From the IMG/VR virus record IMGVR_UViG_2541047788_000006: a DNA stretch of 48,822 bases. One strand, given 5' to 3'. Positions 3,077-48,822 of the stretch are shown piece by piece. The translations under genes and the position numbers were made by a program. How positions within the stretch are numbered: position 1 is the first letter of the stretch; every line of letters begins with the position of its first letter. This stretch comes from a virus (Duplodnaviria > Heunggongvirae > Uroviricota > Caudoviricetes). Below the pieces are notes generated by a model that ran no database searches, was not told where the DNA came from, and saw nothing but the letters and a program-made list of their open reading frames with translations.

Positions 3077-4271
<1,195 letters not shown>

Positions 4272-4506
4272 TTAAATGAAGAACAGAAACAGGTGGTATT
4301 CGAACGAATTAAGTCAGGTGTAAGTATAAGTGCCATTGCCCGGGAATTCAAAACCTCGCGGCAAACCATTTTAAGAGCCAAAGCAAAACTTCAGACACCT
4401 GACATATAAAAAATAATCTCGGTGTGAGATGCTTTACGTCTTCCAAGCCCCCTTCCTTGCCGTAAATGGAAAGATACATCTAATTATAGAATTTATATGT
4501 TTTACC

Positions 4507-5082
4507 CTACGGCAGTGCTGGCCATTCAATATCCTGTGCAGTTGACGTATCAACACGGTTCAGCAATACCCGATACTTTTTCCATGCTTCCAGCAACGAG
4601 ATTTCTTCCTCCGTTGCAATTTCCAGATCTGCAGCATCCTGAAGCGGCGCAATATGCTCACTGGCTACCTGCATCAGGTTGTTTTTTGTTTCTTCCGCCT
4701 CCCGGATCCGGAACAGTTTTTCTGCTTCCGTATCCTTCACCCAGGCTGTGCCGTTCCACTTCTGAAACTCCCCTTCCGGGGATAACCAGGTGACATTTTC
4801 CGGTAATGGGCCAAGTTCAGAAATAAATAACGCGTCGCCGGAAGCCACGTCATAGACGGTTTTACCCCGATGATCTTCAACGAGATGCCACGATGCCTCA
4901 TCACTGTTGAAAACAGCCACGAAGCCAGCCGGAATATCTGGCGGTGCAATATCGGTACTGTTTGCTGGCAGACCTGTATGAGGCGGAATATATGCGTCAC
5001 CTTCACCAATAAATTCATTAGTTCCTGCCAGCAGATTATAAATTTTTATGGTCCGTGGTTGTTCACTCATTCTGAATGCCAT
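4507..5082 (-). CDS. tfa: tail fiber assembly protein (Tfa)
   Basis: 191-aa ORF with the Tfa-family N-terminus ([35 protein letters not shown]); immediately downstream of stf. Its first ATG overlaps the stf stop (TAATG), with an alternative ATG at 5070. Confidence 0.85.
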
Positions 5083-7997
5083 TATGCAAGCCTCACAATG
5101 TAGTTAAATGCGATGTTTTTGACAGTGTTTTCCGCGTTACCAGCAGCGTTAACGGTGATGGTGTGTCCATGTGAGCCAATCGCAACAGAGTGCGTATGAG
5201 CACCAATACCGACAGTATGTGCGTGAGCACCTGCAGATGCAGCTGTGCCGCTGACACTATGAGTGTGCGCTCCTGCAGCACTTGTATTCACACTGGCCGC
5301 AGACACTACCTTATGTACTGACCCATTTTGTGACCACTGGCTGACTGCTGATGCGCCTGTGACACTATGAGTATGGTTTCCGGCACTTGCGGCTGTACCG
5401 CTCACACTGTGCGTATGCGCCCCGGTGTTATTCGTGGATTTAGTGCCGTAATCAAACGACGATGTGGTTTTCGTCCCCAAATCCGTACTGGATGCACTGG
5501 CGCTGTGGGTGTGCGATTTAATGCCGTCCTGTTCCTGAGACAATACGGCCCGACCACTGGCAGGTTTGCCCTTAATCGTCCAGCCACGCATATCAGGGAT
5601 CACGCCTGACGGATAAGCGGTTGCAAGTTTCGGGTAAGCGGATTTGTCAAAAGTCTGCCCCTGCATCAGGGCATAACCAGACGGAACGGTATCTGATGGC
5701 CACGGGATTGGTGCGCCAGGCGGATAAAACTGCTCTGATGGCGTATAGAGTGAATAAACTGTACCGTCCGTTAACCCTTCCGGCTTATTAGCAGAATATG
5801 CTGGTGACGTATGAATAGTCACGCTGGCATTACTGGTATAATCCCATTGAATATTTACACCAGTCGCATAATTTCCGATTGCAACGTAAATATCGTAAGT
5901 ATCACCAGATGTATTGACCCAGGCAAAATTTGTAAACCCTGTCGATGTGCGCTGCCATAAAGCACCAGTAATCCCCTTCGGATTACCATTACCTGCACGC
6001 AAAACAAGTTCAGATATACCTGCCTGTTGAGGTGACCCCACGTTAAATCCCGCGCCACCAATCAACGTAATTGAAACAACAGAACTCGCCTGTGGCATGG
6101 TTACCGTTGCTAATTTGAACCAACCAGCACCACCGCTGAATGACATTGTTGTTGAGTTAAGCGTACCAATATCTTTCGGCGTCAGTGTTATATCCGCTGA
6201 AAGCGCCTTACCATTCACCTTACGGGCAGAAGGTACCCGACCATTCGCATTATCATTAGCTGCTTTCACTGCTTTCGGTGTCGCGGCAAGCGTTTCAGAT
6301 GCGCTGTTGGTTGCACTACTGAGCTGGACAATTCCTTTTTGTGCTGTCGTAGCGTCCTGAGCAGTATATTTCCCGTTAGCAAGGTCATAGGCTGCCTTTA
6401 CCGACTTTGGCGTTGCCGCCAGCATTTCAGATGTGCTGTTGGTCGCGCTGCTGAGCTGAACTATCCCTTTTTGTGCTGTCGTTGCATCCTGTGCGGTGTA
6501 TTTCCCGTTAGCCAGCTCATACGCGGCCTTAACGGCTTTTGGCGTTGCCGCCAGTGACTCGGAAGTGCTGTTAGTCGCACTGCTGAGCTGTACTATCCCC
6601 TTTTTCGTCGTGCTCGCATCCTCAAGCGCCACGGCGGATGCAATATCCTCTGCCCGTTTTGCCGCTGTCTCGGCGCGCGTTGCCGCGGATTCCGCCGTAC
6701 TTTTGCTCTGAGCTGCCGCCGTCGCACTGCCAGCTGCCTCTGTCGCCTTCGTGGATGCCGTCGTGGCGCTGCCCTTTGCTGCTGACGCCTGTCTGGTCGC
6801 CTCATCTTTTGAAGCAGACGCAGATGATGCCGATGACGCCGCCGAACTGGCGGACGATGCGGCAGCCGTTTTTGAGGATTCTGCGCTGGTTTCCGACGCT
6901 TTCGCGTTCGTCTCGGATGTCTTCGCTGCGGAAGCAGACCTCGCTGCTGCGCTGGCCTGTTCAGTGGCTTCGCCAGCCTTCGTTGTGGCTGTTGAAGCGG
7001 ACGATGCGGCGCTTTCTGCCGATTTTCCGGCAGCGGTGGCACTGGCTGAGGCCTGCCCGGCACTTGTTGACGCGGCACTGGCAGACGACGCAGCCGCTGT
7101 TTTTGAGCCTGCCGCAGCTGAGGCGCTCTGTCCCGCTGCCGTCTCAGAAGACCTGGCGTTCGTCTCGGACGTTTTTGCCGCCTTCGCGGAATTTGCTGCC
7201 GCCGTTGCCGAGGAAGCTGCGCTACTGGCGCTCGAGGATGCGTTCGTTTCTGATGATTTTGCCGCCTCTTTTGAAGCCGACGCATCCCGGGCTGAGGTGG
7301 CAGCTTCTGACGCTTTCGTGGTCGCGGTGGATGCAGAAGTGGCGGCTGATTGTTGTGACGCTGCAGCATTCGTTTCTGACGTTTTCGCGGCAGCGGCACT
7401 GGTAGCTGCCGCGCTTTTTGAGGACTCTGCAGCGGCAGCACTTTTTTCCGCTTCAGTGGCCTTTGTTGATGCCGTTCCTGCGCTGGAAGACGCTGACTGA
7501 GCCGACGAAGCGGCCTGTCCGGCTGACGTGCTGGCTGCACGTGCTGAATCTGCAGCATCAGTCGCATGGGTTGCCGCCTCACGGGCAGATGTGCCGGCAT
7601 CACTGGCTGACTTCTTCGCGGCTGCCGTGTTCTGTGCCACCACGGACGCGTTACGCGCCACCTCTTCCACCATCTGTTCAAAACGGCGCAGTGCCTCCGG
7701 ACGGGCATCATCCTCCGTCATGGCACCGAGAAAATCATTCAGCGTACCGGGTTGAGAATCTTCATACACGGTGATGGTCCCGGCATGTGACGGCGGGAAT
7801 CCTTCCACCAACAGAATAACGCTGTACTGCCCGTACTCAACGTCCATGCTGTAACGCCCGGCTTCATCCGGATTTTCTGAGGCCAGCGTGTTCACCACCA
7901 CCGTGGTGCTGTTACGTTTTGCTTTCAGCTGGATTGTGCAGTTCTGTACCGGTTTTCCTGTGCCGTCTTTCAGTACACCTGAAATCTTTACTGCCAT
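5082..7997 (-). CDS. stf: side tail fiber protein (Stf)
   Basis: N-terminus [26 protein letters not shown] resembles lambda Stf; long Ala/Ser/Thr-rich segment, three 44-aa tandem repeats and C-terminal His-x-His repeats. Start taken at ATG 7997 (the ORF track begins at the upstream GTG 8003). Confidence 0.9.
6250..6700. repeat. three in-frame tandem 132-bp repeats inside stf
   Basis: Repeat units begin at 6301, 6433 and 6565 (period 132 bp) and encode the 44-aa unit [44 protein letters not shown] three times. Confidence 0.75.
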
Positions 7998-24241: not shown

Positions 24242-24459
24242 CAGAACCTCGCCAGCCGGTACCCGGGATGCCCCCGTCGTCGTGTAATCAGAGCCGCAAG
24301 GCGGCGCTCCCACTCCTGCCGTCCCTGCCGGATCTCAGATAAGTTTTCCATGGTCATCTGCTGACCATTAAAGGTGACGGATTTTCCGTCCAGCACCGCC
24401 ATTTCAGCTTCCGTATAACGCTGAATCATGGCTTCGATATCATTCTGGTTCATAACCAT
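24241..24459 (-). CDS. gpW-like head-tail joining protein
   Basis: 72 aa; C-terminal ...RRRGHPGY resembles the lambda gpW C-terminus (...RRRGPAGFYV) as recalled; located between terL and portal as in lambda. Confidence 0.6.
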   Translation of the reverse strand: MVMNQNDIEAMIQRYTEAEMAVLDGKSVTFNGQQMTMENLSEIRQGRQEWERRLAALITRRRGHPGYRLARF

Positions 24460-26552
24460 CCTCCGGAAGTCAGCCAGGGGTTAACATCGTCAGTTACTGT
24501 TTTCTTCCGTTTTTGTTTTTTAACAGGCGTGGATACCGGTTCCGGTGTGGGTGACGGTTCGGTACTGTCCGGGACACACTCCAGCCAGGTTTCCCGGCTC
24601 GCCCACTCCGGTGCATCCGGCCAGCGGATCTTTTCGTATCCATGCAGAATGACCAGAGCCTCGGCATACACCATCAGGTCAAAAGCTTCGTTGGCACCGC
24701 GACCCGGCTTACTCCATTTCCCGTCACTGCTCCGCTCTTCATACGTCAGTTCGTCGTAAAACCAGCTCCCCAGCCAGTCAGGGAAATGCACATAGCCGGG
24801 ACCTGGCGAGTCACGCCATAACGCGTTATTCACCCGGTCTTTCAGGGCATCCGTCTGAAGAAGCCAGAGCGGCACATCACCTGCGGCCTGCGCCCGGCGG
24901 CCCGTTCGTCCGGTGTTATCAGGGAATGTACGGCTGATCAGTTTTGCGCGCCGGATGCTGTCACCCTTAAACAGGTAAATACGTTTACCAAGGCCATCAC
25001 GACGGCAACGACGCCAGAATTTATAGGCATTATCAGTGACCCCGTCTTCACCGCCGGAGTCCACCGCCATTGCCATCAGTCGCATTTGTTGAGAAGGATC
25101 GGAGGCCAGCGGCCAGCTTTTATGAAAAACATCCGTCAGCAGGACATCCCAGTCTTCCGGATAGCTGGCCGGATCAATTCGCTGGCTCTCCCCGTCGCTG
25201 TCACCGCGCAATGACTGCGTGATGTTGTAACGATCAATAATCCAGCGTTCGCCACGGCTGCCATAGCCCGTTACCTGAACCACAAAACGGCGATGACGTC
25301 CCGCCTGCACATCCACTGTCGCCACAAGGAAATTAACGCCATCCGGCACACTGCGGGAAGGAACTGGCTCTGCCCGCTGCTCAAGCAATTCACTTTTTCG
25401 TTGCTCCATGCTGGCGCGGGGAAGATAAGGTAATCCCCAGTCGGTATTGATAACCGTCTTGAGTGTCTCTTCACTTCCGGTTGTCTCGTATTCCTGTTCT
25501 GCAGTAAGCAGTTTGTAAACGAGTTGCGAGAGTGTCTGATAAGCAGCTGCCGGACCCTCCATCCAGAATGACGCAATACGTGAACGCCGGGGATCACCAT
25601 AACGACTGCCATCTGCATTGATGGATTCACCATCCCGTAACCAGACCCCACGTCCGTTCAGCTCGCGTTTTTGTTCAGGCAAAATCCGTCCTGAACAGGA
25701 AGGACACTGAATATAAGCCGCCTCACTTGCCAGCACAGGATCGGCAATATCACGGAAACCAGCAACCACATCGCCGCAGGGCTGAAAATACTCACCACAG
25801 TGTGGACAGGGCCAGTACCAGCGACGGCGATCGCCACGGTTATAGAGCGACAGGATCCCCGTGGTTGGTGGAGCCTCATGCGGTGAAGTCCGTCGCCATT
25901 TCACATCCTTCACATCCCTGCCGGGGGAACTCTCCACCAGCGTCATACCACTGGACATAAATGTGGTGGTACGTTTTGAGGCAAGAGAGAAGGCATCCCC
26001 CTCACCATCAATATCTTCCGGAAAACGGTCATAATCCGTCAGCGCCACGCATTTATAATCTGATGAAGACATGATATTGACTGACGGCCAGCCGATTTTC
26101 AGGTAGTTGCCAGCAAGGAATGTTCTGTCATAAACGTTGTTGTCATTTTTGTTCGGACTCAGGCGACTGACCACTTCCGGGCTGACGCGAAACGTTCTGG
26201 CGAGTCGTTTTTTGGAGTGTTCGCGGGCTTTTTCCTCCGTCATCTGAATGATCAGCATATCAGCAGGATCGCAAATCACGTTGTAAATCACCCAGCCGTC
26301 AATCAGGCCGATAGTCTTGCCGGTTCGTGCCGGGCCAACAAATATCACTGCGTCGTATTCACGCGAGGCCAGGCAGTTCATAGGCTCAATAACATACGGT
26401 GCCACCAGCGGATCCCACGGGACTGAGTTCCCTGCCCCCATAGGCACCCGCATATACTGAGCAACGGCATCAGCAACCCGCATTCGTCTCGGTGCGCGAA
26501 GGATATAACCTGAATCGGTTCGTGCTGCCTTTGCGGTTTCCTGATTCAGCAT
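24450..26552 (-). CDS. terL: terminase large subunit (lambda gpA-like)
   Basis: 700-aa ORF with Walker A-like VGPARTGKT and a C-terminal nuclease region; 1-nt overlap with terS. Confidence 0.9.
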   Translation of the reverse strand: MLNQETAKAARTDSGYILRAPRRMRVADAVAQYMRVPMGAGNSVPWDPLVAPYVIEPMNCLASREYDAVIFVGPARTGKTIGLIDGWVIYNVICDPADMLIIQMTEEKAREHSKKRLARTFRVSPEVVSRLSPNKNDNNVYDRTFLAGNYLKIGWPSVNIMSSSDYKCVALTDYDRFPEDIDGEGDAFSLASKRTTTFMSSGMTLVESSPGRDVKDVKWRRTSPHEAPPTTGILSLYNRGDRRRWYWPCPHCGEYFQPCGDVVAGFRDIADPVLASEAAYIQCPSCSGRILPEQKRELNGRGVWLRDGESINADGSRYGDPRRSRIASFWMEGPAAAYQTLSQLVYKLLTAEQEYETTGSEETLKTVINTDWGLPYLPRASMEQRKSELLEQRAEPVPSRSVPDGVNFLVATVDVQAGRHRRFVVQVTGYGSRGERWIIDRYNITQSLRGDSDGESQRIDPASYPEDWDVLLTDVFHKSWPLASDPSQQMRLMAMAVDSGGEDGVTDNAYKFWRRCRRDGLGKRIYLFKGDSIRRAKLISRTFPDNTGRTGRRAQAAGDVPLWLLQTDALKDRVNNALWRDSPGPGYVHFPDWLGSWFYDELTYEERSSDGKWSKPGRGANEAFDLMVYAEALVILHGYEKIRWPDAPEWASRETWLECVPDSTEPSPTPEPVSTPVKKQKRKKTVTDDVNPWLTSGGWL

Positions 26553-27046
26553 TACTCCTCCTGCTGTAATTCCTCCTCATCATCCGCACCTGCTTCAGTC
26601 ACCCGCAGGGCTATCTGATCGCGCAGATCATCAATAATGGACTGAACACGGCTCACAGCGGCAGGCTGCAGACCGCAGTCACGTTCAAGAATATCCGGTA
26701 ATGTCTCCAGCACCTGCACGACCGCTTTTGCCCAGATGGCAAACTCCCGTCTGACATCACTGGCCGGAATGAGTTGTGCCGTTTCCTGTTCGAACTTAAG
26801 ACGCTCACGTTCAGACTGATACCAGGCTTTGCGCTCATGCGCGTCCATTTCGCCTTCTGCAACCGGCGGTGGTAATGCCAGAAATGCCGACACAATATCA
26901 ACCACCCGATAAAGCTTGAGGTTGCTTTCATGCCCCCCTGCAACGGGTAGATTTTGCAGCCTTGCCGCAGCAGTCTGGCGATGTACACCTGACAATGCCG
27001 CCAGTTGACTGATATTCAGCGTCAGATTTTTTAACTCTCGATCCAT
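26552..27046 (-). CDS. terS: terminase small subunit (Nu1-like, N-terminal HTH)
   Basis: 164 aa; N-terminal HTH-like segment (LNISQLAALSGVHRQTAAARL), acidic C-terminus; directly upstream of terL and downstream of the cos-like site. Confidence 0.7.
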   Translation of the reverse strand: MDRELKNLTLNISQLAALSGVHRQTAAARLQNLPVAGGHESNLKLYRVVDIVSAFLALPPPVAEGEMDAHERKAWYQSERERLKFEQETAQLIPASDVRREFAIWAKAVVQVLETLPDILERDCGLQPAAVSRVQSIIDDLRDQIALRVTEAGADDEEELQQEE

Positions 27047-27209
27047 ACCCGCTCCAGAATGTTTTAAACATGCATCTTGCGAACAACTTTAGGCAAACGG
27101 TGTTAGTGATGAACAAAAAACAATCAGAATCGACACCATAAAAATAAATCCACTGTAATATCAATCAATTACAGTAGTGGTGATGACGAATAAAATTTCA
27201 AAAACTAGC

Positions 27210-27290
27210 CTTTTTCCGCGACGCTCCCGCCCCGTGGCAGGGGCCCCCACCGGGAGGACCCGACAGCCTGACAGCCTGACAGCCGTGACG
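27210..27290. promoter_or_regulatory. candidate cos site (cosN-like core plus flanking repeats)
   Basis: Minus-strand sequence ACGGGGCGGGAGCGTCGCGG closely resembles the lambda cosN cohesive-end sequence GGGCGGCGACCTCGCGG as recalled; located ~170 bp upstream of terS; adjacent triple tandem GACAGCCT at 27262..27285. Confidence 0.5.
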
Positions 27291-27608
27291 AGCATCTGAT
27301 ACAGCGCTTTACATAATGGCATAGGAATAATTCAGAAGGACATCACAGCATGCCCACACAAATTAGTGTGAGTGTCCTGTTTCTTCCTACGCACAGGACT
27401 GACGAGCATGAGGGGAAAATATGCGAACCATAAATGCCTCATCTTCAGCAATGCAGCCGGCATCCGAACAGGACGATATTGTAAATTCACCTAATTACGA
27501 GGACATTGCAGTAGTTGAATTGCAGCTCTGTATTAGCCTGACAGTGACAGAATGCGATATTGACTCTGTCACAGGTGAAATAGTTTGAATGATTAGCAGT
27601 TATGGTGC

Positions 27609-27815
27609 TCAGTCAACCACCAGGGAATAATCCTTCGAATTCTTATCGTGCTTCACCAACGCTGCCTCAATTGCCCTGAATGCTTCCAGAGACACCTGAT
27701 GTTCTATACATGCAATTACAACATCCGGGTAACTCATAGAAATGGTGCTATTAAGCATATTTTTTACACGAATCAGATCCAACGAGAGTTCATCAGCAGA
27801 TTGTTCTTTATTCAT
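27609..27815 (-). CDS. ynfO: small prophage protein YnfO-like
   Basis: 68-aa ORF; symbol from Qin gene order (terS/nohA - ynfO - ydfO - gnsB - ynfN - cspI) and remembered sequence. Confidence 0.5.
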
Positions 27816-28115
27816 TTTGTCGCTCCATGCGTTTGCTCGTCATCTAGCGGTTAAAATATTACTTCAAATCTTACTGCATAAAAGAGGAAAAGTATGAAAG
27901 TTTGAGTACATCGACCTTACATACATCTGTCGGTTGCATATCCCTCCTGGATGCCAGCAAGGCTCAATTTTGTTACGCAATCAACACTATTCATTAAAAA
28001 CAGGCTTAATATTTGACATAAATCATCAACAAAACACAAAGAGGTCAGACCAGATTAAAACAATAAACACGATAATGCAAACTACGCGCCATCGTATCAC
28101 ATGGAAGGTTTACCA

Positions 28116-28526
28116 ATGGCTCAGGCTGCCATTTTTAAAGAAATATTCGATCAAGTGCGTAAAGATTTAAACTGTGAATTATTTTATTCTGAGCTAAAAC
28201 GTCACAATATCTCACTTTATATTTACTATTTAGCCACAGATAATATTCACATTGTGTTAGAAAACGACAACATAGTGTTAGTAAAAGGACTCAAAAAGGT
28301 TGTAAATGTTAAATTCTCCAGAAACAAACATCTTATAGAGACCTCCTATAATAAGTTGAAATCAAAAGAAATCACATTTCAACAATACAGGGAAAATCTT
28401 GCTAAAGCAGGAGTTTTCCGATGGGTTACAAATATCCAGGAACACCAAAGATATTACTATGCCTTTGATAACTCATTACTATTTACTGAAAGCATCCAGA
28501 AAACTACACAGATCTTACCACGCTAA
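28116..28526 (+). CDS. ydfO: YdfO-like protein (DUF1398-type)
   Basis: Start at [31 protein letters not shown], matching the remembered YdfO N-terminus; plus strand, opposite to neighbours. Confidence 0.7.
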
Positions 28527-34325: not shown

Positions 34326-35414
34326 TTACGCCAGTACGCCAGTTGCCAGCGCGCGATCGATAAAACGAAATATCAGCTCCAGTTGGGAGCCATACTTCTC
34401 TTCAAATGCCACTGTATCCGTATGCAGCTCGTTGTGATGCTTTCTGCACAAAGGCAACACAAAGAGATCATGTGCTTTTGTTCCCATTCCGCCCTGCCCG
34501 TGACCAATCAGATGATGCGGATCGTCGGCTGGCATACCGCAGCAAGCACACGGCTGTGTCTTAACCCAACGAGTGTATTTCTCCTTAACCCAGCGGCGAC
34601 GTTTAGGCAGCTTCATGAAAGATTCCGGAGACTCTGGATCAACGGTGATGCTTACCACCGTCTTTTCCTGTGGTGGTTTTTGTTGCTGGTGGGCGTAAGG
34701 CAACGGTGCAAGATTTTCTGTGCGTTGTTTCAATATGCTGGTGGCGGTCTGCTCTCCCTGTACGATGTCGCTTTCGCGGTACACCGAGCAGATTTTTTCC
34801 GCTGGTAATCCCAGCGAACGACGCGATACAGCCTCAGGTAGTGCATCCACCACCTGATTGCAGACCGCCCACCAGGATAATTCAGCCAAAGATAATTCCC
34901 GCTCCTGCGTACCGCTTATTGCGTGACGGATGACGTCAATCACCCATGCTGTCAGATTTTGTTGAGCAAGCAGCTCCAGTGATTCCGATGTCTGGTCACG
35001 CAGTTGGTTGTCGCAGTGCCAGCACAACACCATTGCGCCGGTACCATAACGGTGAATGACTGTTTCAGTGTGATGGTAATCGCCATTAGGCCACTGGCAG
35101 GATGTAACATGACGTAATAGCCAGTCAGACAATGCGCCAACGCCGCCAGTAGCACGAATCACCCGTTCGTTACTAAAAAACGGCAGCAATGTTTTGTCTT
35201 CTGCCAGCGGCTGGCGAACGGCAGGAACGACTCCGGATGGCAGATTTCGCATGCTTTTTGGTTCCGGTTCCACCAGCACTCGAGGATTATGAAATATCTG
35301 TATGGATTCACGGCCCGGCTTAAGGACCACCAGCCCAAGCTCAGGCACCAGAACAGGTCTAAGTAATACCCGCACGTTACCTCCAGATCCGTTGCTGGAA
35401 AGTGCGGGACGCAC
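34326..35414 (-). CDS. ydfU: DUF968-type protein with C-terminal HNH-like motif (YdfU-like)
   Basis: 362-aa ORF; C-terminal CACCGMPADDPHHLIGHGQGGMGTKAHDLFVLPLCRKHHNELH resembles an HNH/Zn-finger nuclease motif; start uncertain (overlaps the upstream ORF). Confidence 0.6.
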   Translation of the reverse strand: MRPALSSNGSGGNVRVLLRPVLVPELGLVVLKPGRESIQIFHNPRVLVEPEPKSMRNLPSGVVPAVRQPLAEDKTLLPFFSNERVIRATGGVGALSDWLLRHVTSCQWPNGDYHHTETVIHRYGTGAMVLCWHCDNQLRDQTSESLELLAQQNLTAWVIDVIRHAISGTQERELSLAELSWWAVCNQVVDALPEAVSRRSLGLPAEKICSVYRESDIVQGEQTATSILKQRTENLAPLPYAHQQQKPPQEKTVVSITVDPESPESFMKLPKRRRWVKEKYTRWVKTQPCACCGMPADDPHHLIGHGQGGMGTKAHDLFVLPLCRKHHNELHTDTVAFEEKYGSQLELIFRFIDRALATGVLA

Positions 35415-36345: not shown

Positions 36346-37467
36346 AGCCTGCTTCTCCTTGCCTTTCGGCTCGTAAGAGGCTAACCTACATGTGTCTAGC
36401 ATGAAATTGGCCTCAGATTAATGTTAAGCGTCTTGCAGGACGCGTAATGTTAACTGGGGCTTTTCTCTATCTGCCTTTGGTGTTCATGCCCGAGGCAGAT
36501 AGCCTCAAGCACCCGCAGCCATTCTACTTAACTACCGTTACCTCGCCAATATGAAATCAGTCAGAAAGGCGATCCATAAGAACAATAGCAAGACAATAAA
36601 TCGCCATTACAGCCGTAATAGCCAGCGCACATTTGAGAACCAGCACCACAACCTCCTGTATTGGACGTAGACCAGTCCTGATGAATATGAGGCTGTCTCG
36701 TCAGTGATTCAATACAACTATTGGGTATAGTTTCTCTGATTTTTTCTGTGGAAATGGGGCACAACCACTAGTCACCACCAGCACTTCTTTTAATACGCAA
36801 AGTCCGACACAAGCTAACCTTCTAGTCCGCTTTGAGCGAAAAACAGCCATAATTTAGTGCCACGTATATAATGATAGAGCTATTCAAGCTAGCAATTCAC
36901 ATGTAAAAATTCAGAGGGTAGAAGCACATAGTTATAAATGTTGGCTCCATCGACAAATTGCGGTCTCAAGTACATTTATTAATGTTGCCCCCGCATTAAC
37001 AAATCATCAAGGTGACGACATGGACGATATTAATATCAGCCTCGACGAACTTAACACTATTGATTTATCCCCCTTAATCCAGAGTAAGCTGCCAGTTACC
37101 TGCTTTGATATCACAAAGTATCTTTCTAGCCTAGGTGATGGAAGAGCGGAGATAAGACTGCTAACCCATATTTGCGGTTTTCACTTTCGTCCCGAAAATC
37201 CACAGGTACCATTTGGTCCGTGCTTTCAAAGCAGCCAAGGTAGATCTGCAATTCCGGATGACATTAACGGGTTGTCGCTGGAGGTACTTTCTCAATTTTG
37301 CCCGACGATAGAGCTACCCGAACTTCAAGCTCGTATTGCTGATACACTTTGGGTTCGTAAAATTGGTGGAATCCGTTTTCCTTTGCTGGCAGTCCGTGCT
37401 TATTATGCGTCCAGTATAGCTATTATGACATCGCAAGGGACGTGGGTTAGTGCTTTAGAACGCCTAG

Positions 37468-38662
<1,195 letters not shown>

Positions 38663-40224
38663 CTAGAGCGTGCGCTTAGGCTGTGTTGTTTTTTTCGAAA
38701 GAATACTGATTTCAGGGATGAATTTGATCAGCTTTCGGCACATCTACTAGCAGAGTATGAACGTACCAGAGAACAAGGCGATTCACCTTATCCGCTGCGA
38801 CTCCTGCAACTCGATATCGACTGTAAAGTGAGTGAGCCATCTTTTATTGCCCAGGAACTCCTGTTTCTGACAAAAAACTATCTGGCTCAAAAATTATTTT
38901 CATTTGCCGTCGATGCCTGTAAAACCGCAATCACGATTGCGAATAGGTGCTGTGACAGAGATACACAGTTTGAATTCTGGCGGCTTCTTGCCGATACACA
39001 TCTGGAAGAGTCAAAATTCCAAGATGGCGGTATGATTTCGGCAGCCTGCATGCAGAATGCTATTGAAGCACTGGCTAATATTCCAGGAACCCGAATAGAA
39101 CGTCTTGCGCTGTATGAAGAAATGCGTGATTACCAAATCGAATCCCGTCACCAGATGTCTATCCTTCAGTCTCCCCCTCAAGATATTAGTGAGATTGTCC
39201 ATCAAGCCAAGAGTCGGGTAGTCGGAAGAGATATGTTTGATATGGTTTTCAGACTTGCGATGCTGGTCTGTCGGCCAACCAGCATTGAGAGACTTAAGGC
39301 TCAAGCAATAGAACAAAAGGCCAACAGCATAGCTTGGATGTTTGGATCAACACATATTGATCATGAGGGAATGACACTTGCTCGCATACCCGCAGGATTG
39401 GGGATTGATGATGCAAATGGGGCAGTTATTTGGCCCATAATGATGACGAGAATGCGTATCGACCATGAGTTGGCAGTAGCTGGGCAAATTATTCCTGCTA
39501 CAGATGAGATCACAATGAAATATCCAATCTCGGAGGCGTTTTTTCGCGATATGTTCATCAATCATCCCTTCATCCCGTTTGGGCATGAAGAGTTTTTCAT
39601 CAAGGGTATGGTTTGCGGTTTCAATGGAGATTTTATGACGGCATGCCACGTGTTGATTCCCCAGATCGAAAATAGTCTGAGATATGTGGCTAAAATTAAA
39701 GGTGAGGAACCATCGCAGCTTCACGGGGACGGTTCGCAAGAGCGAAATGGACTCAAGGGATTACTAGATAATCCACTGATTATTGAAGCTTTCGGCGTAG
39801 ACATAATTGGCAATCTTCAGGCCTTACTGGTAGATAAAATCTATGGTGATTTACGAAATCAACTAGCTCACGGATATGTGCCTGCCGGTTACTACAATCA
39901 ACCTCCCTGCATTTTTGCATGGTGGCTTGTATTGCACATTCTAATGAACCCTACGGCGAGATACTGGCAAGCCACTTATGGCCAAGAGAGTGAGGCTCAG
40001 ACTTAAAGTGAATAAGTTTACGAAGTTGGCACTTCCGGATGCATGTCCATATGAGTTGAGGCGATTTGGTTAATAAGGTTGAGTGCTGCTGAAATTATTC
40101 GATGTCCGCTTTTGGCACAAAGCGGACAACCACGCCAGATCTACCCTGTGCCATGAAAAATGAGAATGTCAATTCACTCCTGAACTAATGCTTTTTAATC
40201 TAGTAACGTCTAAAATACCTAACA

Positions 40225-44711: not shown

Positions 44712-47183
44712 ATGAGTAAAGTCTTTATTTGCGCCGCTATTCCTGACGAACTGGCAACAAGGGAAGAAGGCGCTGTGGCTGTAGCCACAGCCATTGAAGC
44801 TGGCGACGAACGCCGTGCTCGAGCAAAATTTCACTGGCAATTCCTGGAACATTATCCGGCTGCTCAGGACTGCGCTTATAAATTTATTGTCTGCGAGGAT
44901 AAACCTGGCATACCCCGCCCTGCCCTCGATTCATGGGATGCTGAATATATGCAGGAAAACCGCTGGGATGAGGAGTCTGCTTCTTTTGTCCCGGTTGAGA
45001 CTGAATCCGATCCGATGAACGTCACTTTTGACAAGCTGGCCCCTGAAGTACAGAACGCTGTCATGGTTAAGTTCGACACATGTGAAAACATCACCGTTGA
45101 TATGGTTATTAGCGCACAGGAATTGTTGCAGGAAGACATGGCAACATTCGACGGACATATCGTTGAAGCGTTGATGAAAATGCCAGAAGTTAACGCCATG
45201 TATCCGGAGCTTAAGTTGCACGCCATTGGGTGGGTTAAGCATAAATGTATTCCTGGTGCTAAATGGCCCGAAATTCAGGCAGAGATGCGCATCTGGAAAA
45301 AACGTCGCGAAGGTGAACGCAAGGAAACCGGAAAATACACGTCTGTTGTTGATCTCGCCCGCGCCAGAGCCAATCAACAGTACACTGAAAATTCAACAGG
45401 AAAAATCAGCCCGGTCATTGCTGCCATTCATCGCGAATACAAGCAGACATGGAAAACACTGGATGACGAACTGGCCTACGCTCTCTGGCCTGGTGATGTG
45501 GATGCCGGAAACATTGACGGCAGCATCCATCGCTGGGCAAAAAATGAAGTTATCGATAACGACCGCGAAGACTGGAAGCGTATCTCGGCATCAATGCGCA
45601 AACAGCCTGATGCCCTTCGCTACGACCGCCAAACTATTTTTGGCCTTGTCCGTGAACGTCCGATCGACATTCACAAAGATCCCGTAGCACTGAACAAATA
45701 TATCTGCGAATACCTGACGACAAAGGGCGTGTTTGAGAATGAAGAAACAGACCTGGGCACTGTTGATGTTCTCCAGTCATCAGAAACACAAACTGATGCA
45801 GTGGAAACTGAGGTATCTGATATCCCAAAAAATGAAACCGCGCCGGAAGCTGAACCATCTGTAGAGCGTGAGGGGCCGTTCTATTTCCTCTTCGCAGATA
45901 AGGACGGAGAAAAATACGGTCGCGCAAACAAACTTTCTGGTCTGGATAAGGCACTGGCTGCTGGCGCCACTGAAATCACAAAAGAAGAATATTTTGCCCG
46001 AAAAAATGGCACATACACGGGCTTACCGCAAAATGTAGATACCGCTGAAGATTCAGAACAACCAGAGCCGATAAAAGTTACCGCTGACGAAGTAAACAAA
46101 ATTATGCAGGCAGCCAATATCATCCAGCCTGACGCCGATAAGTTGCTTGCTGCATCACGTGGTGAATTTGTTGAAGGGATTAGTGACCCGAATGATCCGA
46201 AATGGGTTAAGGGGATCCAGACCCGCGATTCTGTGAACCAGAACCAGCATGAATCGGAACGGAACTACCAAAAAGCGGAACAAAACAGCCCAAATGCGTT
46301 ACAAAACGAGCCAGAAACGAAACAGCCTGAATCAGTGGCGCAACAGGAAGTGGAAAAAGTCTGCACCGCCTGCGGTCAGACCGGCGGCGGCAACTGCCCT
46401 GATTGTGGCGCGGTAATGGGCGACGCAACATACCAGGAAACATTCGATGAAGAGTATCAGGTTGAAGTTCAGGAAGATGATCCGGAGAAAATGGAAGGCG
46501 CTGAACATCCACACAAGGAGAACACTGGCGGCAATCAGCATCACGATAGCGATAATGAAACTGGCGAGACGGCAGATCACTCAATTAAGGTGAACGGTCA
46601 TCACGAAATCACATCCACCAGCAGGACGTGTGACCATCTAATGATCGACCTTGAAACCATGGGAAAAAATCCTGATGCCCCGATCATCTCAATAGGTGCA
46701 ATATTTTTCGATCCGCAAACCGGAGATATGGGACCGGAATTTATTAAGACTATCGATCTGGAAACTGCTGGCGGAGTCATTGATCGGGACACCATTAAAT
46801 GGTGGTTTAAGCAATCACGCGAAGCGCAATCTGCCATTATGACCGATGAAATCCCGTTAGATGATGCACTGTTACAATTGCGGGAATTTATCGACGAAAA
46901 CTCCGGTGAATTTTTTGTTCAGGTCTGGGGAAATGGAGCCAACTTCGACAACACGATTTTGCGCCGTTCATACGAACGGCAGGGGATCCCCTGCCCGTGG
47001 CGTTACTACAACGATCGCGATGTACGCACAATCGTTGAGCTGGGGAAAGCCATAGACTTCGATGCCAGAACGGCTATTCAATTCGAAGGTGAGCGCCATA
47101 ATGCACTTGATGACGCCCGTTACCAGGCAAAATACGTTTCAGTTATCTGGCAAAAACTGATCCCGAGTCAGGCTGATTCTTAA
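44712..47183 (+). CDS. ydfE: large early-region protein with C-terminal DnaQ-like (DEDDh) 3'-5' exonuclease domain
   Basis: 823 aa; C-terminal ~190 aa contains MIDLETMG (Exo I), a middle acidic motif, and HNALDDARYQAKY (Exo III with His); upstream CxxC...CxxC zinc-ribbon (CTACGQTGGGNCPDCG); occupies the exo/recombination position upstream of xis-int. Confidence 0.75.
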   Translation: MSKVFICAAIPDELATREEGAVAVATAIEAGDERRARAKFHWQFLEHYPAAQDCAYKFIVCEDKPGIPRPALDSWDAEYMQENRWDEESASFVPVETESDPMNVTFDKLAPEVQNAVMVKFDTCENITVDMVISAQELLQEDMATFDGHIVEALMKMPEVNAMYPELKLHAIGWVKHKCIPGAKWPEIQAEMRIWKKRREGERKETGKYTSVVDLARARANQQYTENSTGKISPVIAAIHREYKQTWKTLDDELAYALWPGDVDAGNIDGSIHRWAKNEVIDNDREDWKRISASMRKQPDALRYDRQTIFGLVRERPIDIHKDPVALNKYICEYLTTKGVFENEETDLGTVDVLQSSETQTDAVETEVSDIPKNETAPEAEPSVEREGPFYFLFADKDGEKYGRANKLSGLDKALAAGATEITKEEYFARKNGTYTGLPQNVDTAEDSEQPEPIKVTADEVNKIMQAANIIQPDADKLLAASRGEFVEGISDPNDPKWVKGIQTRDSVNQNQHESERNYQKAEQNSPNALQNEPETKQPESVAQQEVEKVCTACGQTGGGNCPDCGAVMGDATYQETFDEEYQVEVQEDDPEKMEGAEHPHKENTGGNQHHDSDNETGETADHSIKVNGHHEITSTSRTCDHLMIDLETMGKNPDAPIISIGAIFFDPQTGDMGPEFIKTIDLETAGGVIDRDTIKWWFKQSREAQSAIMTDEIPLDDALLQLREFIDENSGEFFVQVWGNGANFDNTILRRSYERQGIPCPWRYYNDRDVRTIVELGKAIDFDARTAIQFEGERHNALDDARYQAKYVSVIWQKLIPSQADS

Positions 47184-47255
47184 TGTTCAACTGTCGCCGG
47201 TTGTGACTGGTATTCTGCAACCGGCGCTCGTCTAATATAAGAGATAAAGAAATCG

Positions 47256-47507
47256 ATGAGCGAAGTAATCATGATTGTCTCTCCCGGCAAATGGGTATCC
47301 GAAGAGCAGTTAATTGCGCTGAAAGGAATAAAAAAAGGTACGTTAAAAAAGGCCCGGGAAAAATCGTTTATGGAAGGAAGGGAATATAAGCATGTCGCTC
47401 ATGACGGTATGCCATGGGATAACAGTCCATGCTTTTACAACCTGGAAGAAATTGATCGCTGGATTGAGCGCCAGGCATCAGCAAGACCAAGACGTCATCT
47501 TACTTGA
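47256..47507 (+). CDS. xis: excisionase-like protein
   Basis: 83-aa basic protein immediately upstream of the integrase; assignment mainly by position. Confidence 0.55.
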   Translation: MSEVIMIVSPGKWVSEEQLIALKGIKKGTLKKAREKSFMEGREYKHVAHDGMPWDNSPCFYNLEEIDRWIERQASARPRRHLT

Positions 47508-47526
47508 CTAAAAGCCACACTAACTA

Positions 47527-48822
47527 ATGAGAGAAGTTGAAATGAAATATCCGACAGGCGTGGAAAACCATGGAGGGAAATTACGTATCTGGTTTGTTTA
47601 TAAAGGCGTAAGAGTCAGGGAAAACCTGGGGGTTCCTGACACAGCAAAAAACAGGCGCGTTGCAGGTGAGCTACGCGCCTCTGTTTGTTACGCAATAAAA
47701 ACTGGTGTTTTCGACTATGCAAAACAGTTTCCCTCCTCACGCAATCTGGAAAAATTTGGTGAGGCCCGACAAGATTTAACCATAAAAGAACTGGCTGAAA
47801 AATTTCTGGCACTGAAAGAAACTGAAGTCGCAAAAACATCACTCAACACATACCGTGCCGTCATCAAAAATATCCTGAGCATAATCGGTGAAAAAAATCT
47901 TGCCTCATCGATTAATAAAGAAAAATTACTGGAGGTTCGTAAAGAGCTACTGACTGGATACCAGATCCCCAAAAGTAACTATATTGTTACACAACCAGGG
48001 AGATCGGCTGTAACTGTAAATAATTACATGACAAATCTTAACGCCGTGTTCCAGTTTGGTGTTGATAACGGTTACCTGGTAGATAACCCGTTTAAGGGGA
48101 TCTCGCCATTAAAGGAATCAAGAACCATTCCGGATCCTCTTTCGCGGGAGGAATTCATCCGTCTTATCGATGCGTGCAGAAATCAGCAAGCCAAAAATTT
48201 ATGGTGTGTTTCTGTTTATACTGGCGTTCGCCCTGGTGAGCTGTGTGCACTTGGATGGGAGGACATAGATCTGAAAAATGGAACAATGATGATCAGGAGA
48301 AATTTAGCAAAAGACCGTTTCACGGTACCAAAAACACAGGCGGGAACCAATCGGGTCATTCATCTTATTAAGCCAGCAATCGACGCTCTCCGGAGTCAGA
48401 TGACATTAACGAGACTGAGCAAAGAGCATATCATTGATGTTCACCTCAGAGAGTATGGCAGAACAGAAAAACAAAAATGCACCTTTGTTTTTCAACCTGA
48501 AGTGTCAGCGAGAGTAAAAAATTATGGTGACCATTTTACCGTTGACTCAATAAGGCAGATGTGGGACGCAGCGATAAAACGTGCCGGACTCCGCCATCGA
48601 AAATCATATCAGTCGAGACATACTTATGCCTGCTGGTCGCTGACAGCTGGTGCTAACCCGGCATTTATAGCAAACCAGATGGGCCATGCAGATGCGCAAA
48701 TGGTATTTCAGGTATACGGAAAATGGATGTCTGAAAACAATAATGCACAGGTAGCTTTGTTAAATACACAGTTAAGCGAGTTTGCCCCAACCATGCCCCA
48801 TAACGAAGCAATGAAAAATTAA
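47527..48822 (+). CDS. int: tyrosine-type phage integrase
   Basis: 431-aa ORF; C-terminal catalytic region with R...HxxR...Y pattern (SRHTYACWSL...HADAQMVFQVYGKWM); stop TAA at the window end; start may be 47542 (MKYPTG...). Confidence 0.9.
   Translation: MREVEMKYPTGVENHGGKLRIWFVYKGVRVRENLGVPDTAKNRRVAGELRASVCYAIKTGVFDYAKQFPSSRNLEKFGEARQDLTIKELAEKFLALKETEVAKTSLNTYRAVIKNILSIIGEKNLASSINKEKLLEVRKELLTGYQIPKSNYIVTQPGRSAVTVNNYMTNLNAVFQFGVDNGYLVDNPFKGISPLKESRTIPDPLSREEFIRLIDACRNQQAKNLWCVSVYTGVRPGELCALGWEDIDLKNGTMMIRRNLAKDRFTVPKTQAGTNRVIHLIKPAIDALRSQMTLTRLSKEHIIDVHLREYGRTEKQKCTFVFQPEVSARVKNYGDHFTVDSIRQMWDAAIKRAGLRHRKSYQSRHTYACWSLTAGANPAFIANQMGHADAQMVFQVYGKWMSENNNAQVALLNTQLSEFAPTMPHNEAMKN

Follow-up and report, generated by a model that had tools for sequence, protein, structure and literature searches.

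Does the DNA upstream of the small terminase gene of this prophage hold a cos site, and if so, which of the sequence elements found there belong to it? The stretch that we analysed, here called the window, is 48,822 nt long and corresponds to positions 1813063-1861884 of E. coli 118UI; it contains a full-length, mEp460-like lambdoid prophage at the Qin (ydfJ) site, with the late genes on the minus strand. We consider it very likely that the region is the cos of this prophage, arranged as cosQ-cosN-cosB-terS-terL on the minus strand and acting, by analogy, through a lambda-like mechanism. Positions within cos are given as bp, counted from the cohesive end towards terS on the minus strand. The comparison set comprised about 150 related loci; variability of the upstream region was scored on 72 distinct variants, which include loci with identical terS, while the wider cosB layout was followed in 80 loci from many genera, with the tally of IHF sites made on 31 type representatives.

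An earlier note on this DNA had proposed a cos site next to terS, with a core resembling the lambda cosN. Indeed, a lambda-type cos is present 186 nt ahead of terS. The cosN of the note (27216-27235) is correct to the base, as is the lambda sequence given there for comparison, GGGCGGCGACCTCGCGG (bases 1-17 of NC_001416). Three elements were assigned in this part of the site:

27255-27261, minus strand: cosQ, GGGTCCT, identical to the lambda 7-mer; packaging-termination signal
27219-27234, minus strand: cosN, CG/GGGCGGGAGCGT/CG, with a predicted 12-nt 5' cohesive end at 27221-27232
27200-27220, minus strand: cosN-proximal box, CGCGGAAAAAGGCTAGTTTTT, bp 13-33, kept in all phages with a DUF1441 terS, whatever the terS type

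The earlier note had overlooked cosQ, which separates the cosN core from a set of tandem repeats. It is located 22 nt upstream of the predicted top-strand nick (23 nt in lambda), and after this spacer the minus strand reads in the frame ACG/GGGCGGGAGCGT/CGCGG. The nicks are predicted at 27233/27232 on the minus strand and at 27221/27220 on the plus strand, and CG dinucleotides are present on both nick flanks (27219-27234). Alignment with the lambda cos, which had been suggested as a check, gave an identical cosQ and the same frame around the 12-mer; the 12-mer itself agrees with that of lambda (GGGCGGCGACCT) at 8/12 positions, with 6/6 matches at bp 1-6 and mismatches only at bp 7, 8, 9 and 11. 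Feiss reports that selection in lambda-like phages acts on cosQ, on the CG flanks and on the left half of the end, and leaves bp 7-12 free to vary (PMC4669245); the differences in the window's 12-mer, all of which fall in the right half, conform to this pattern. cosQ is highly conserved across lambda-like phages (Feiss, PMC4669245), and we found it retained in 71 of the 72 distinct upstream variants. The two-fold symmetry of the 16-bp cosN extends to 8/16 positions, compared to 10/16 in lambda, and the cosQ-cosN region, folded as a single strand, is no better than shuffles. The cosN-proximal box probably serves to position TerL or as a bendable spacer; identity of the window with the related Tritos and cdtI sequences stops just beyond it, at bp 34.

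The 13/17 match to the lambda cosN is not significant alone because ∼1.2 such matches are expected by chance per window. The chance expectation is 0.04 for the 20-mer match (16/20), and it is 1.4e-4 for the composite of cosQ GGGTCCT, the correct spacing and ACGGGGCGG. The sequence ACGGGGCGGGAGCGTCGCGG occurs a single time on the minus strand, at 27216-27235. These features are real, and their weight comes from their position and from relatives, not from the motifs alone. If the resemblance to lambda were fortuitous and the phage used headful (pac) packaging instead, we would expect a cosN match of this quality about once per window, as is seen; however, the composite with cosQ would not be expected, dozens of genera show this architecture ahead of terS, TerL is a gpA-family enzyme rather than a headful type and is accompanied by both cosQ and cosN, and related records open at the predicted nicks. 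We give the headful reading next to no chance and regard it as already effectively refuted.

The records of relatives bear on where the ends lie. The GenBank records of cdtI (AB285204) and Tritos (OV696610) open at GGGCGGGAGCGT and close at ...CCACG, and the annotation of LLS gives a 12-nt 5' cohesive site, GGGCGGCGCGCT; the starts chosen for Tritos (a prophage that was re-annotated, with no end mapping in its paper) and for LLS (inferred) are curators' placements rather than mapped ends. The yong2 record closes with its own 12-mer and opens at CGCGG, which is the other predicted nick, exactly 12 nt on. In Cr-LKS3, another phage with a DUF1441 terS, 5' cohesive ends were determined experimentally (PMC9303873). 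The mEp460_4F5 record begins 5 nt before the nick and has a 3-nt gap in the cohesive-end sequence, a hint of an assembly break at cos that is unusable as end mapping. From these sequences, we infer that the physical ends of the window's phage are at the predicted nicks. A full-text literature search for the 12-mer or its complement returned one unrelated paper (the original papers on cdtI and on the natural history of cosN fall outside that search), and a full-text search for DUF1441 returned passing mentions alone.

The two genes that follow cos encode the terminase:

26552-27046, minus strand: terS, 164 aa; Pfam DUF1441 (PF07278); PHROG 141 'terminase small subunit'
24450-26552, minus strand: terL, 700 aa; lambda gpA family, ATPase and endonuclease

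TerL matches the Pfam families GpA_ATPase (PF05876, 1.6e-71) and GpA_nuclease (PF20454, 1.1e-85) and is the enzyme predicted to nick cosN. For TerS, a model from a 36-sequence alignment (pLDDT 79) predicts an N-terminal beta-alpha-alpha-wing-beta-alpha arrangement, that is, a winged HTH; the model from the single sequence was poor (pLDDT 66). We obtained no Pfam match of TerS to Phage_Nu1 (PF07471) even at E ≤10, a weak match to the lambda Nu1 profile (hhalign probability 13%, E 0.002), and no significant match in fold searches. The site would work like the lambda system, yet its TerS is of a different sequence family.

Between cosN and terS, the earlier note had described an 8-bp inverted repeat as a candidate element for binding the small terminase. 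The repeat and the features in and beside it are as follows:

27152-27175, no strand assigned: palindrome, ACTGTAAT (27152-27159)-N8-ATTACAGT (27168-27175), 8/8 complementary, bp 58-81
27159-27171, plus strand: IHF core, TATCAATCAATTA, with 0 mismatches to the consensus WATCAANNNNTTR, bp 62-74, inside the palindrome
27139-27149, no strand assigned: A/T tract with the plus-strand sequence TAAAAATAAAT, located 5' to the IHF core on the consensus strand

The two arms do pair at all eight positions, but the spacer is 8 nt rather than 9 and the repeat ends at 27175, not 27176. Inverted repeats of this kind (8/8, spacer ≤20 nt) are expected ∼15.6 times per window and 0.06 times within the 186-bp cosB. 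The palindrome encloses TATCAATCAATTA, the only perfect IHF core in the window; this single match is not significant window-wide because 2.4 core matches are expected by chance. Among the 31 type representatives, a core with ≤1 mismatch is found in 18, compared to 2.5 expected, mostly at bp 61-65 and on the same strand, and the core at bp 61-65 is conserved in 15/31, in combination with unrelated terS types. An A-tract is expected beside an IHF core, after the lambda attP H' site, and the A/T tract TAAAAATAAAT lies in such a place. Judged from these comparisons, the palindrome is most likely part of an I1-type bending site for host IHF.

The proposal that the palindrome is the site in cosB to which a TerS dimer binds would account for a perfect 8/8 repeat located between cosN and terS, where so few are expected, and for the fair conservation of the arms among loci with identical terS; moreover, dimeric HTH proteins often bind palindromes. 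However, one locus with a 100% identical terS (L099) has lost the palindrome and kept a perfect IHF core, CP-1639 and other HRQT-type relatives similarly retain the core and not the arms, and changes in a single arm are uncompensated. The two hypervariable positions of the palindrome fall in the N4 of the IHF consensus, and variation is confined there. If TerS recognized this element, we would expect it to be specific to the terS type, but the conserved core fits the consensus of a host protein and keeps its position across unrelated terS types, whereas the repeats that are type-specific, and that co-vary with the TerS HTH, flank the palindrome on both sides. Its location at bp 58-81 is also that of the lambda I1 and not that of R3 (bp 48-65). 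These observations argue against a TerS dimer site, which we consider improbable.

Alternatively, the palindrome and its T-rich run might form an RNA hairpin or intrinsic terminator in the part of the late transcript that separates cos from terS. A terminator scan does find a match on the coding (minus) strand, a stem of 10 pairs with a loop of 8 nt and the tail ATTTATTTTT, and shuffled sequences fold less well than this hairpin (z -3.7). The stem, however, is AT-rich and weak (3/10 G-C pairs, -5.1 kcal/mol), about one such match is expected by chance (0.7 ± 0.9), and the T-run is interrupted and is supplied by the A/T tract TAAAAATAAAT, which is equally explained as the A-tract of the IHF site. 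Furthermore, the palindrome is lost in L099 and absent from relatives, no Rfam match was found in 26500-28200, and a terminator placed before the terminase genes would oppose late expression. We consider a terminator very improbable.

The sites of TerS are expected to be type-specific, and three candidates surround the IHF site:

27177-27189, minus strand: candidate R3, main TerS site, TCGTCATCACCAC, bp 44-56
27129-27139, minus strand: candidate R2, ATGGTGTCGAT, bp 94-104, inverted relative to R3
27102-27114, minus strand: candidate R1, GTTCATCACTAAC, bp 119-131, in the orientation of R3

In lambda and N15, R3 is found at bp 48-65 (PMC4669245, PMC9026076), and the candidate R3 sits there. A (CAY)n tract occupies this position in all HRQT-type relatives, and the R3 tract co-varies with the TerS HTH motif (kinship ignored). 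R3 resembles an inverted element at bp 85-114 in a type-specific manner (permutation p<5e-5, kinship ignored), and the reverse-only and complement-only controls gave p values of 0.16-0.39. Similarly, the zone at bp 111-135 holds a type-specific direct match, R1 (p<5e-5, kinship ignored), whose GTTCAYCAYC is conserved across the HRQT-type relatives. The window's own R2 agrees with R3 at only 7-8/12 positions. Most of the 80 loci, which come from many genera, have the layout R3-I1-R2(inverted)-R1 ahead of terS. On these patterns, the CAY-rich R3, R2 and R1 are likelier TerS sites than the palindrome.

On the other side of cosN, the earlier note had counted three tandem 8-bp units as part of the packaging site:

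27262-27285, no strand assigned: GACAGCC(T/G) repeat, three units (GACAGCCT, GACAGCCT, GACAGCCG), abutting cosQ on its outer side

The units are present, although the third (GACAGCCG) is imperfect, and TRF reports a period of 8 with 3.4 copies and a score of 47. Across loci, the copy number varies from 0 to 4, and loci with identical terS have 2, 3 or 4 copies or unrelated sequence instead. A role as an accessory to cosQ, for instance in termination efficiency or factor binding, would fit with the repeat directly abutting cosQ and with the occurrence of related units (AGCTGTCA-GGCTGAC) at the same place in many relatives. Such a role is nevertheless very unlikely: the number of copies is not fixed, many loci in which both terS and cosQ are identical carry unrelated sequence there, lambda and other relatives have a different element, and the repeat has no special fold (z -0.5 vs shuffles). 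Its assignment to the packaging site was not supported, since it lies outside cosQ and is often replaced despite identical terS. The repeat appears to be a slippage-prone, variable-number sequence outside the conserved cos, and dispensable.

These elements suggest how the site would operate. TerS (DUF1441, predicted N-terminal winged HTH) would bind the CAY-rich R3 (bp 44-56), the inverted R2 (bp 94-104) and the direct R1 (bp 119-131), while host IHF would bind the core at bp 62-74 inside the palindrome, and the resulting bend would bring R3 and R2 face to face. This arrangement would then anchor the gpA-type TerL, and cosN would be nicked 12 nt apart to leave the 5' overhang GGGCGGGAGCGT. Packaging would run rightward through terS, and cosQ GGGTCCT at the next cos would signal the terminating cut. 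Binding by TerS and by IHF is assigned to this phage by analogy with lambda.

The earlier note had also taken the site as a sign of a packaging-competent prophage. Competence is plausible: each module is intact, and the virion module shows ∼98% identity to plaque-forming phages. The gene set includes int, xis, immunity, replication, Q, lysis, terS/terL, portal, head and tail genes. Compared to the plaque-forming mEp460, Ayreon and phi458, identity in the virion module amounts to 96-98%. It is possible, although we think it rather doubtful, that this copy is defective and grounded, with a cos that is genuine in kind and never used. The prophage might be defective because IS200C is inserted in the tail-fibre region (7407-7865) and att sites were not identified; a search between the prophage ends gave just one 10-mer. 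Sequence resembling an integrase remnant is apparent beyond int, judged by eye only, and in K-12 a decayed prophage occupies the Qin locus. Against a defect, PGAP annotates zero pseudogenes within the prophage, the IS is intergenic, and identity to plaque-forming phages is 96-100% across cos, both terminase genes and the head and tail genes. At roughly 45 kb, the prophage is also comparable in length to mEp460, Ayreon and Tritos (44.5-46.4 kb).

The site is an ordinary lambda-type cos, essentially known, and our picture of cosB extends the textbook mechanism and does not challenge it. Its value is mostly one of annotation: cos sites are almost never annotated. The cos sequence is present in 2113 of 5426 complete E. 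coli genomes, and no feature is annotated under the site among the RefSeq matches listed. With an exact cos, prophage genomes can be opened correctly and virion ends predicted, and it becomes easier to match terminases to the prophages or hijacking islands that they could package. The comparison of cosB regions of the DUF1441 type likewise provides testable candidates for TerS sites and specificity cassettes.

Compared to lambda, the window has the same cosQ GGGTCCT, the same ACG/12 nt/CGCGG frame, and an identical left half (GGGCGG) and CG flanks; it also has a TerL of the same gpA family, the candidate elements of its cosB follow the lambda order (R3, IHF site, inverted R2, direct R1) with similar spacing, and the terS ATG is 186 nt from the end, compared to 190 in lambda. 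It differs from lambda in the cohesive end at bp 7, 8, 9 and 11, in the cosQ-cosN spacer (22 nt, not 23) and cosN symmetry (8/16, not 10/16), in its CAY-rich R elements, which are unrelated to the lambda R sequence, and in its TerS, which is Pfam DUF1441 rather than Phage_Nu1 (21% identity). The 'simple' cosB of N15 has R3 at a similar position (bp 48-59 in N15) but is without I1, R2 and R1, whereas the window appears to have the complex arrangement.

Among closer relatives, mEp460, Ayreon, phi458 and vB_EcoS-569R4 have terS genes that are 99-100% identical to that of the window, and cosB is 85-97% identical where their records cover it; their records, however, were opened arbitrarily near terS, and in the Ayreon paper cos was only predicted, somewhere upstream. 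Because relatives with near-identical copies form plaques, this terS and cosB are very probably functional. LLS/mEp213 and the cyanophage Cr-LKS3 have a DUF1441 terS and a gpA-type TerL as well. In LLS, the 12-nt end GGGCGGCGCGCT (inferred) is followed by the same cosN-proximal box and CATCATCAT tract, while Cr-LKS3 differs in its 9-nt overhang (mapped) and in a terS that is only 40% identical.

cdtI and Tritos have cosQ, cosN and the bulk of TerL in common with the window: cosQ, the spacer, the 12-mer and the next 22 nt show few or no differences. The three GGCTGTCA units are present in Tritos as well, whereas cdtI has no repeat. Both differ from the window in a cassette at about 26453-27199, which spans cosB, terS and ∼33 codons at the start of terL and in which they have another cosB/terS type, with R3 = GGCGGCGGCA, the HTH motif HRDT and a TerS that is 42% identical to the window's, both being DUF1441. 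We see an about even chance that DUF1441 TerS forms a large lineage parallel to Nu1, with R elements resembling triplet repeats, (CAY)n here and (CAG)n or GGC elsewhere, arranged as R3-IHF-R2-R1, and defining swappable specificity cassettes (cosB, terS and the N-terminal tip of terL) among phages with a common cosQ/cosN and TerL. Lambda and 21 have cosQ and cosN in common and differ in cosB and TerS specificity (PMC4669245); the window differs from Tritos and cdtI in the same manner, as known here from sequence. If the proposal is true, the cassettes of the window and of Tritos/cdtI would form a natural pair equivalent to that of lambda and 21 in packaging specificity.

The packaging region contains a genuine, ordinary cos site of the lambda type, read on the minus strand in the order cosQ, cosN, cosB, terS and terL. 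The features discussed here, with bp positions counted from the start of the cosN 12-mer, are:

24450-26552, minus strand, gpA-family TerL, both gpA domains found
26552-27046, minus strand, terS, a DUF1441 protein (PHROG 141 'terminase small subunit', 7e-74)
27102-27114 (bp 119-131), R1 candidate GTTCATCACTAAC
27129-27139 (bp 94-104), R2 candidate ATGGTGTCGAT
27159-27171, plus strand, IHF core TATCAATCAATTA, the sole perfect WATCAANNNNTTR in 48.8 kb
27177-27189 (bp 44-56), R3 candidate TCGTCATCACCAC
27255-27261, minus strand, cosQ, GGGTCCT, the same as in lambda
27262-27285, tandem repeat GACAGCCT, GACAGCCT, GACAGCCG (TRF period 8, 3.4 copies, score 47)

The minus-strand 20-mer ACGGGGCGGGAGCGTCGCGG, in which an earlier note had seen a resemblance to lambda cosN, occurs once, at 27216-27235. 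When the joined ends of lambda (CGGGTCCTTTCCGGTGATCCGACAGGTTACG, GGGCGGCGACCT and CGCGGGTTTTCGC in succession) are aligned from cosQ to cosN with the minus strand of the window (CGGGTCCTCCCGGTGGGGGCCCCTGCCACG, GGGCGGGAGCGT and CGCGGAAAAAGGC), the flanks ACG and CGCGG are common to both, the cosQ-cosN spacer is 22 nt in the window but 23 nt in lambda, and the 12-mer is changed only at bp 7, 8, 9 and 11. Natural lambda-like cos sites show the same pattern (Feiss and co-workers, PMC4669245), with 12-mer differences at bp 9 and 12 in N15 and at 8, 9 and 11 in Gifsy-1; the variants we saw are 12-mers ending in GCGG or GCAT, and GGGCGGCAGCGG. Singly these motifs are weak evidence, and about 1.2 matches of 13/17 to lambda cosN are expected per window by chance. 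The improbable part is the combination: cosQ, the right spacing and ACGGGGCGG together have a chance expectation of 1.4e-4. The cosN call was right, as was the lambda sequence given with it. The same cos sequence recurs across 2113 of 5426 complete E. coli genomes and is already the origin chosen by the depositors of phages cdtI and Tritos. Headful packaging is excluded because of the TerL family and the presence of cosQ and cosN.

The distance from ACG to CGCGG, usually 12 nt, is 11 in VT1-Sakai, 10 in CP-1639 and 14 in Gifsy-2; the sites may be defective, the G runs may hold sequencing errors, or the overhangs may differ in length. In lambda (48440-48470) and in 14 of 70 loci, a palindrome resembling a Fur box, GATAATCATTATC, is found 4-10 bp upstream of cosQ; in the window the GACAGCC repeat takes its place.

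The records of relatives bear on the ends. Those of cdtI and Tritos begin with GGGCGGGAGCGT and end in CCACG, the start of the Tritos record carrying the caveat that Tritos is a re-annotated prophage. LLS (terS 58% identical) is annotated with a '5' extended single-strand cohesive site GGGCGGCGCGCT' at 1-12, an end inferred with the help of M. Feiss, the virion reads not crossing cos. The record of Hafnia phage yong2 (57% identical) closes with its own 12-mer and opens with CGCGG, which places its opening 12 nt further on, at the second of the predicted nicks. The Ayreon cos is a prediction only. Cyanophage Cr-LKS3, the one DUF1441-terS phage for which we consulted an experimental mapping, has 9-nt 5' extensions with lambda-like flanks. 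Together, these ends give very good support to the identification of cos here; where exactly the DNA of this phage ends, we infer. The mEp460_4F5 record (LR595868.1) opens 5 nt ahead of the predicted nick, on its upstream side, reads GGGCGGGAGCG-CGG and is 3 nt short in the cohesive-end region; the assembly may have gone wrong here because virion reads stop at cos.

The one modestly new element is the comparison of cosB layouts among phages with a DUF1441 terS. We compared phage relatives and, as a second set, 80 loci from one-genome-per-species contigs (Enterobacterales, Pasteurellaceae, Marinobacter and Halomonadaceae), with terS 35-100% identical. Most share one order: cosQ (GGGTCCT or GGTACTC), a spacer of ~22 nt, ACG, 12 nt, CGCGG, the box RAAACGGCTAGTTTT, a repeat-like short tract at ~bp 44-57, TAAnnnnTTGAT at ~bp 62-74, the tract again, first inverted (~bp 90-105) and then direct (~bp 116-131), and the terS ATG. 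In layout this corresponds to the 'complex cosB' known from lambda, 21, phi80 and Gifsy-1, namely R3, I1, inverted R2 and R1, with R3 near bp 48-65 (PMC4669245, PMC9026076). The box, CGCGG-RAAAMGGCTAGTTTT (A5-N6-T5; 27200-27220), lies immediately right of cosN; it is kept in phages of every terS type and many genera, and is the most conserved part of cosB. Candidate roles are a TerL contact, a bend or a spacer.

Between R3 and R2 lies the inverted repeat that the earlier note had proposed as a small-terminase binding element. The repeat is present, with arms ACTGTAAT (27152-27159) and ATTACAGT (27168-27175), but its spacer is 8 nt, not 9, and the end given for it, 27176, was likewise off by one. 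About 15.6 such 8/8 palindromes with a spacer of ≤20 nt are expected per window, and 0.06 inside the 186-bp cosB. The IHF core occupies the spacer and the inner arm bases, and has an A/T tract on its 5' side, as is usual in well-studied IHF sites. A core with ≤1 mismatch is found at bp 53-95 in 18 of 31 type representatives (shuffled mean 2.5, maximum 8), 15 of these on the same strand at bp 61-65; the element between R3 and R2 is independent of type and fits a host-protein consensus. Among 72 variants with identical terS, both hypervariable positions fall within the N4 of the core, and single-arm changes have no compensating change. The terminase reading was an over-reading. Most telling is a locus with 100% identical terS (L099), which reads CAATGCAACTAATTGATATTCCAGAT, losing the palindrome and keeping a perfect core, TATCAATTAGTTG. 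CP-1639 also has a perfect core without the arms. On this evidence the palindrome is probably a local elaboration of I1 and not a TerS site. A terminator-like match coincides with it on the coding strand, so that it might be a hairpin of that kind, but its AT-rich stem is weak, chance would produce about one match of this sort, and the element lacks conservation. Returning to the I1 reading, we consider it reasonably probable that IHF binds here.

The type-specific elements are the R3, R2 and R1 candidates. Across the 31 representatives, with kinship ignored, the R3 tract fits the inverted element (bp 85-114) and the direct element (bp 111-135) better when they come from its own locus than when they are taken from others (permutation p<5e-5 for each), and in the low-GC subset the same tests give p of 0.01 and 1e-4. 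Reverse-only and complement-only probes in these representatives give no own-locus excess (p 0.16-0.39). The tract type also follows the predicted TerS recognition helix across the compared loci, common descent being uncorrected: HRQT goes with (CAY)n, NRGTVKKR with TGTCAGCAGCAGG, HRDT with GGCGGCGGC or CGGCAGCAGC, and NRNxVARR with GTGCAGCAGCA. On these patterns we lean towards the assignment of R3, R2 and R1 as TerS sites.

The tandem repeat, which had been taken as part of the packaging site, lies on the outer side of cosQ, beyond the conserved cos, and that claim went too far. Its minus-strand unit GGCTGTCA occurs in 2, 3 or 4 copies, some degenerate, in loci with identical terS; Tritos has the same three as the window and cdtI none, and in many other loci wholly different sequence adjoins cosQ. 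The region has no special structure on folding. It behaves like a variable repeat prone to slippage, and packaging is very unlikely to depend on it.

The whole window has an identical counterpart in the E. coli 118UI chromosome at 1813063-1861884. It holds a full-length lambdoid prophage at the Qin site, between a truncated ydfJ and rspB. The PGAP annotation lists int, xis, exo, dicB, cI/cro-like, replication, Q-like antiterminator and lysis genes, cold-shock and gnsB morons and ybcV/ybcW, followed by the minus-strand late genes. Beyond the terminase these encode a head-tail adaptor, lambda-family portal, protease/capsid fusion, tail proteins, J and lom, ending with IS200C, tail fibres and pinQ. 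With the isolated phages mEp460, Ayreon, phi458 and relatives the virion module shares 96-98% identity, and terS 99-100%. It is plausible that this copy of the prophage is active: no pseudogene is annotated inside it and its size is right. It may yet be inactive, given that IS200C is present, that a search for att sites gave none, and that decayed prophages are familiar from the Qin locus.

Several other features were noted. The IS200C transposase is inserted at 7407-7865, between the lom-like and tail-fibre genes, and pinQ adjoins tfaQ and a tail-fibre gene (3108-7286), which suggests an invertible host-range segment. Flanked by hokD and the replication/DUF977 genes is a DUF4209 gene (595 aa, 37020-38807, plus strand) that runs against its neighbours; it may be a moron or serve in defence. 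Past the intact integrase (46343-47623), positions 47700-47830 seem, on visual inspection, to code for the N-terminal portion of a second integrase-like protein; the stretch has no PGAP annotation and could be a remnant of an older Qin-site prophage. Chi (GCTGGTGG) occurs on the minus strand at 25934, 26402, 30703, 35270, 35327, 36775 and 46615 and on the plus strand at 34685 and 34737, a window-wide bias of 7:2 favouring the strand of the late genes and cos, which recalls the Chi-rich lambdoid phages, the Tritos class among them (PMC12315714).

The window, Tritos and cdtI have in common cosQ, cosN, the next 22 nt and nearly all of terL. Identity runs from upstream of cosQ through bp 34, is lost, and returns 33 codons into terL (~26453), so that the swapped stretch (minus strand, 26453-27199) comprises cosB, terS and the N-terminal tip of TerL. 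The N-terminus of lambda gpA binds Nu1, and by analogy the exchanged tip would be the part contacting TerS. TerS itself is not a Pfam Nu1 protein in a Pfam search; when it is aligned to Nu1 the HTH is in register and identity is 21%, a comparison of profiles gives a weak match (probability 13%, E 0.002), and by sequence TerS falls outside the Nu1 family. The packaging system would, by analogy, work like that of lambda. Lambda and 21 have the same cosQ and cosN and differ in cosB and TerS specificity, a pairing mirrored by the window against Tritos and cdtI, and the cassette has the look of a swapped module for packaging specificity, as in the lambda/21 pair.
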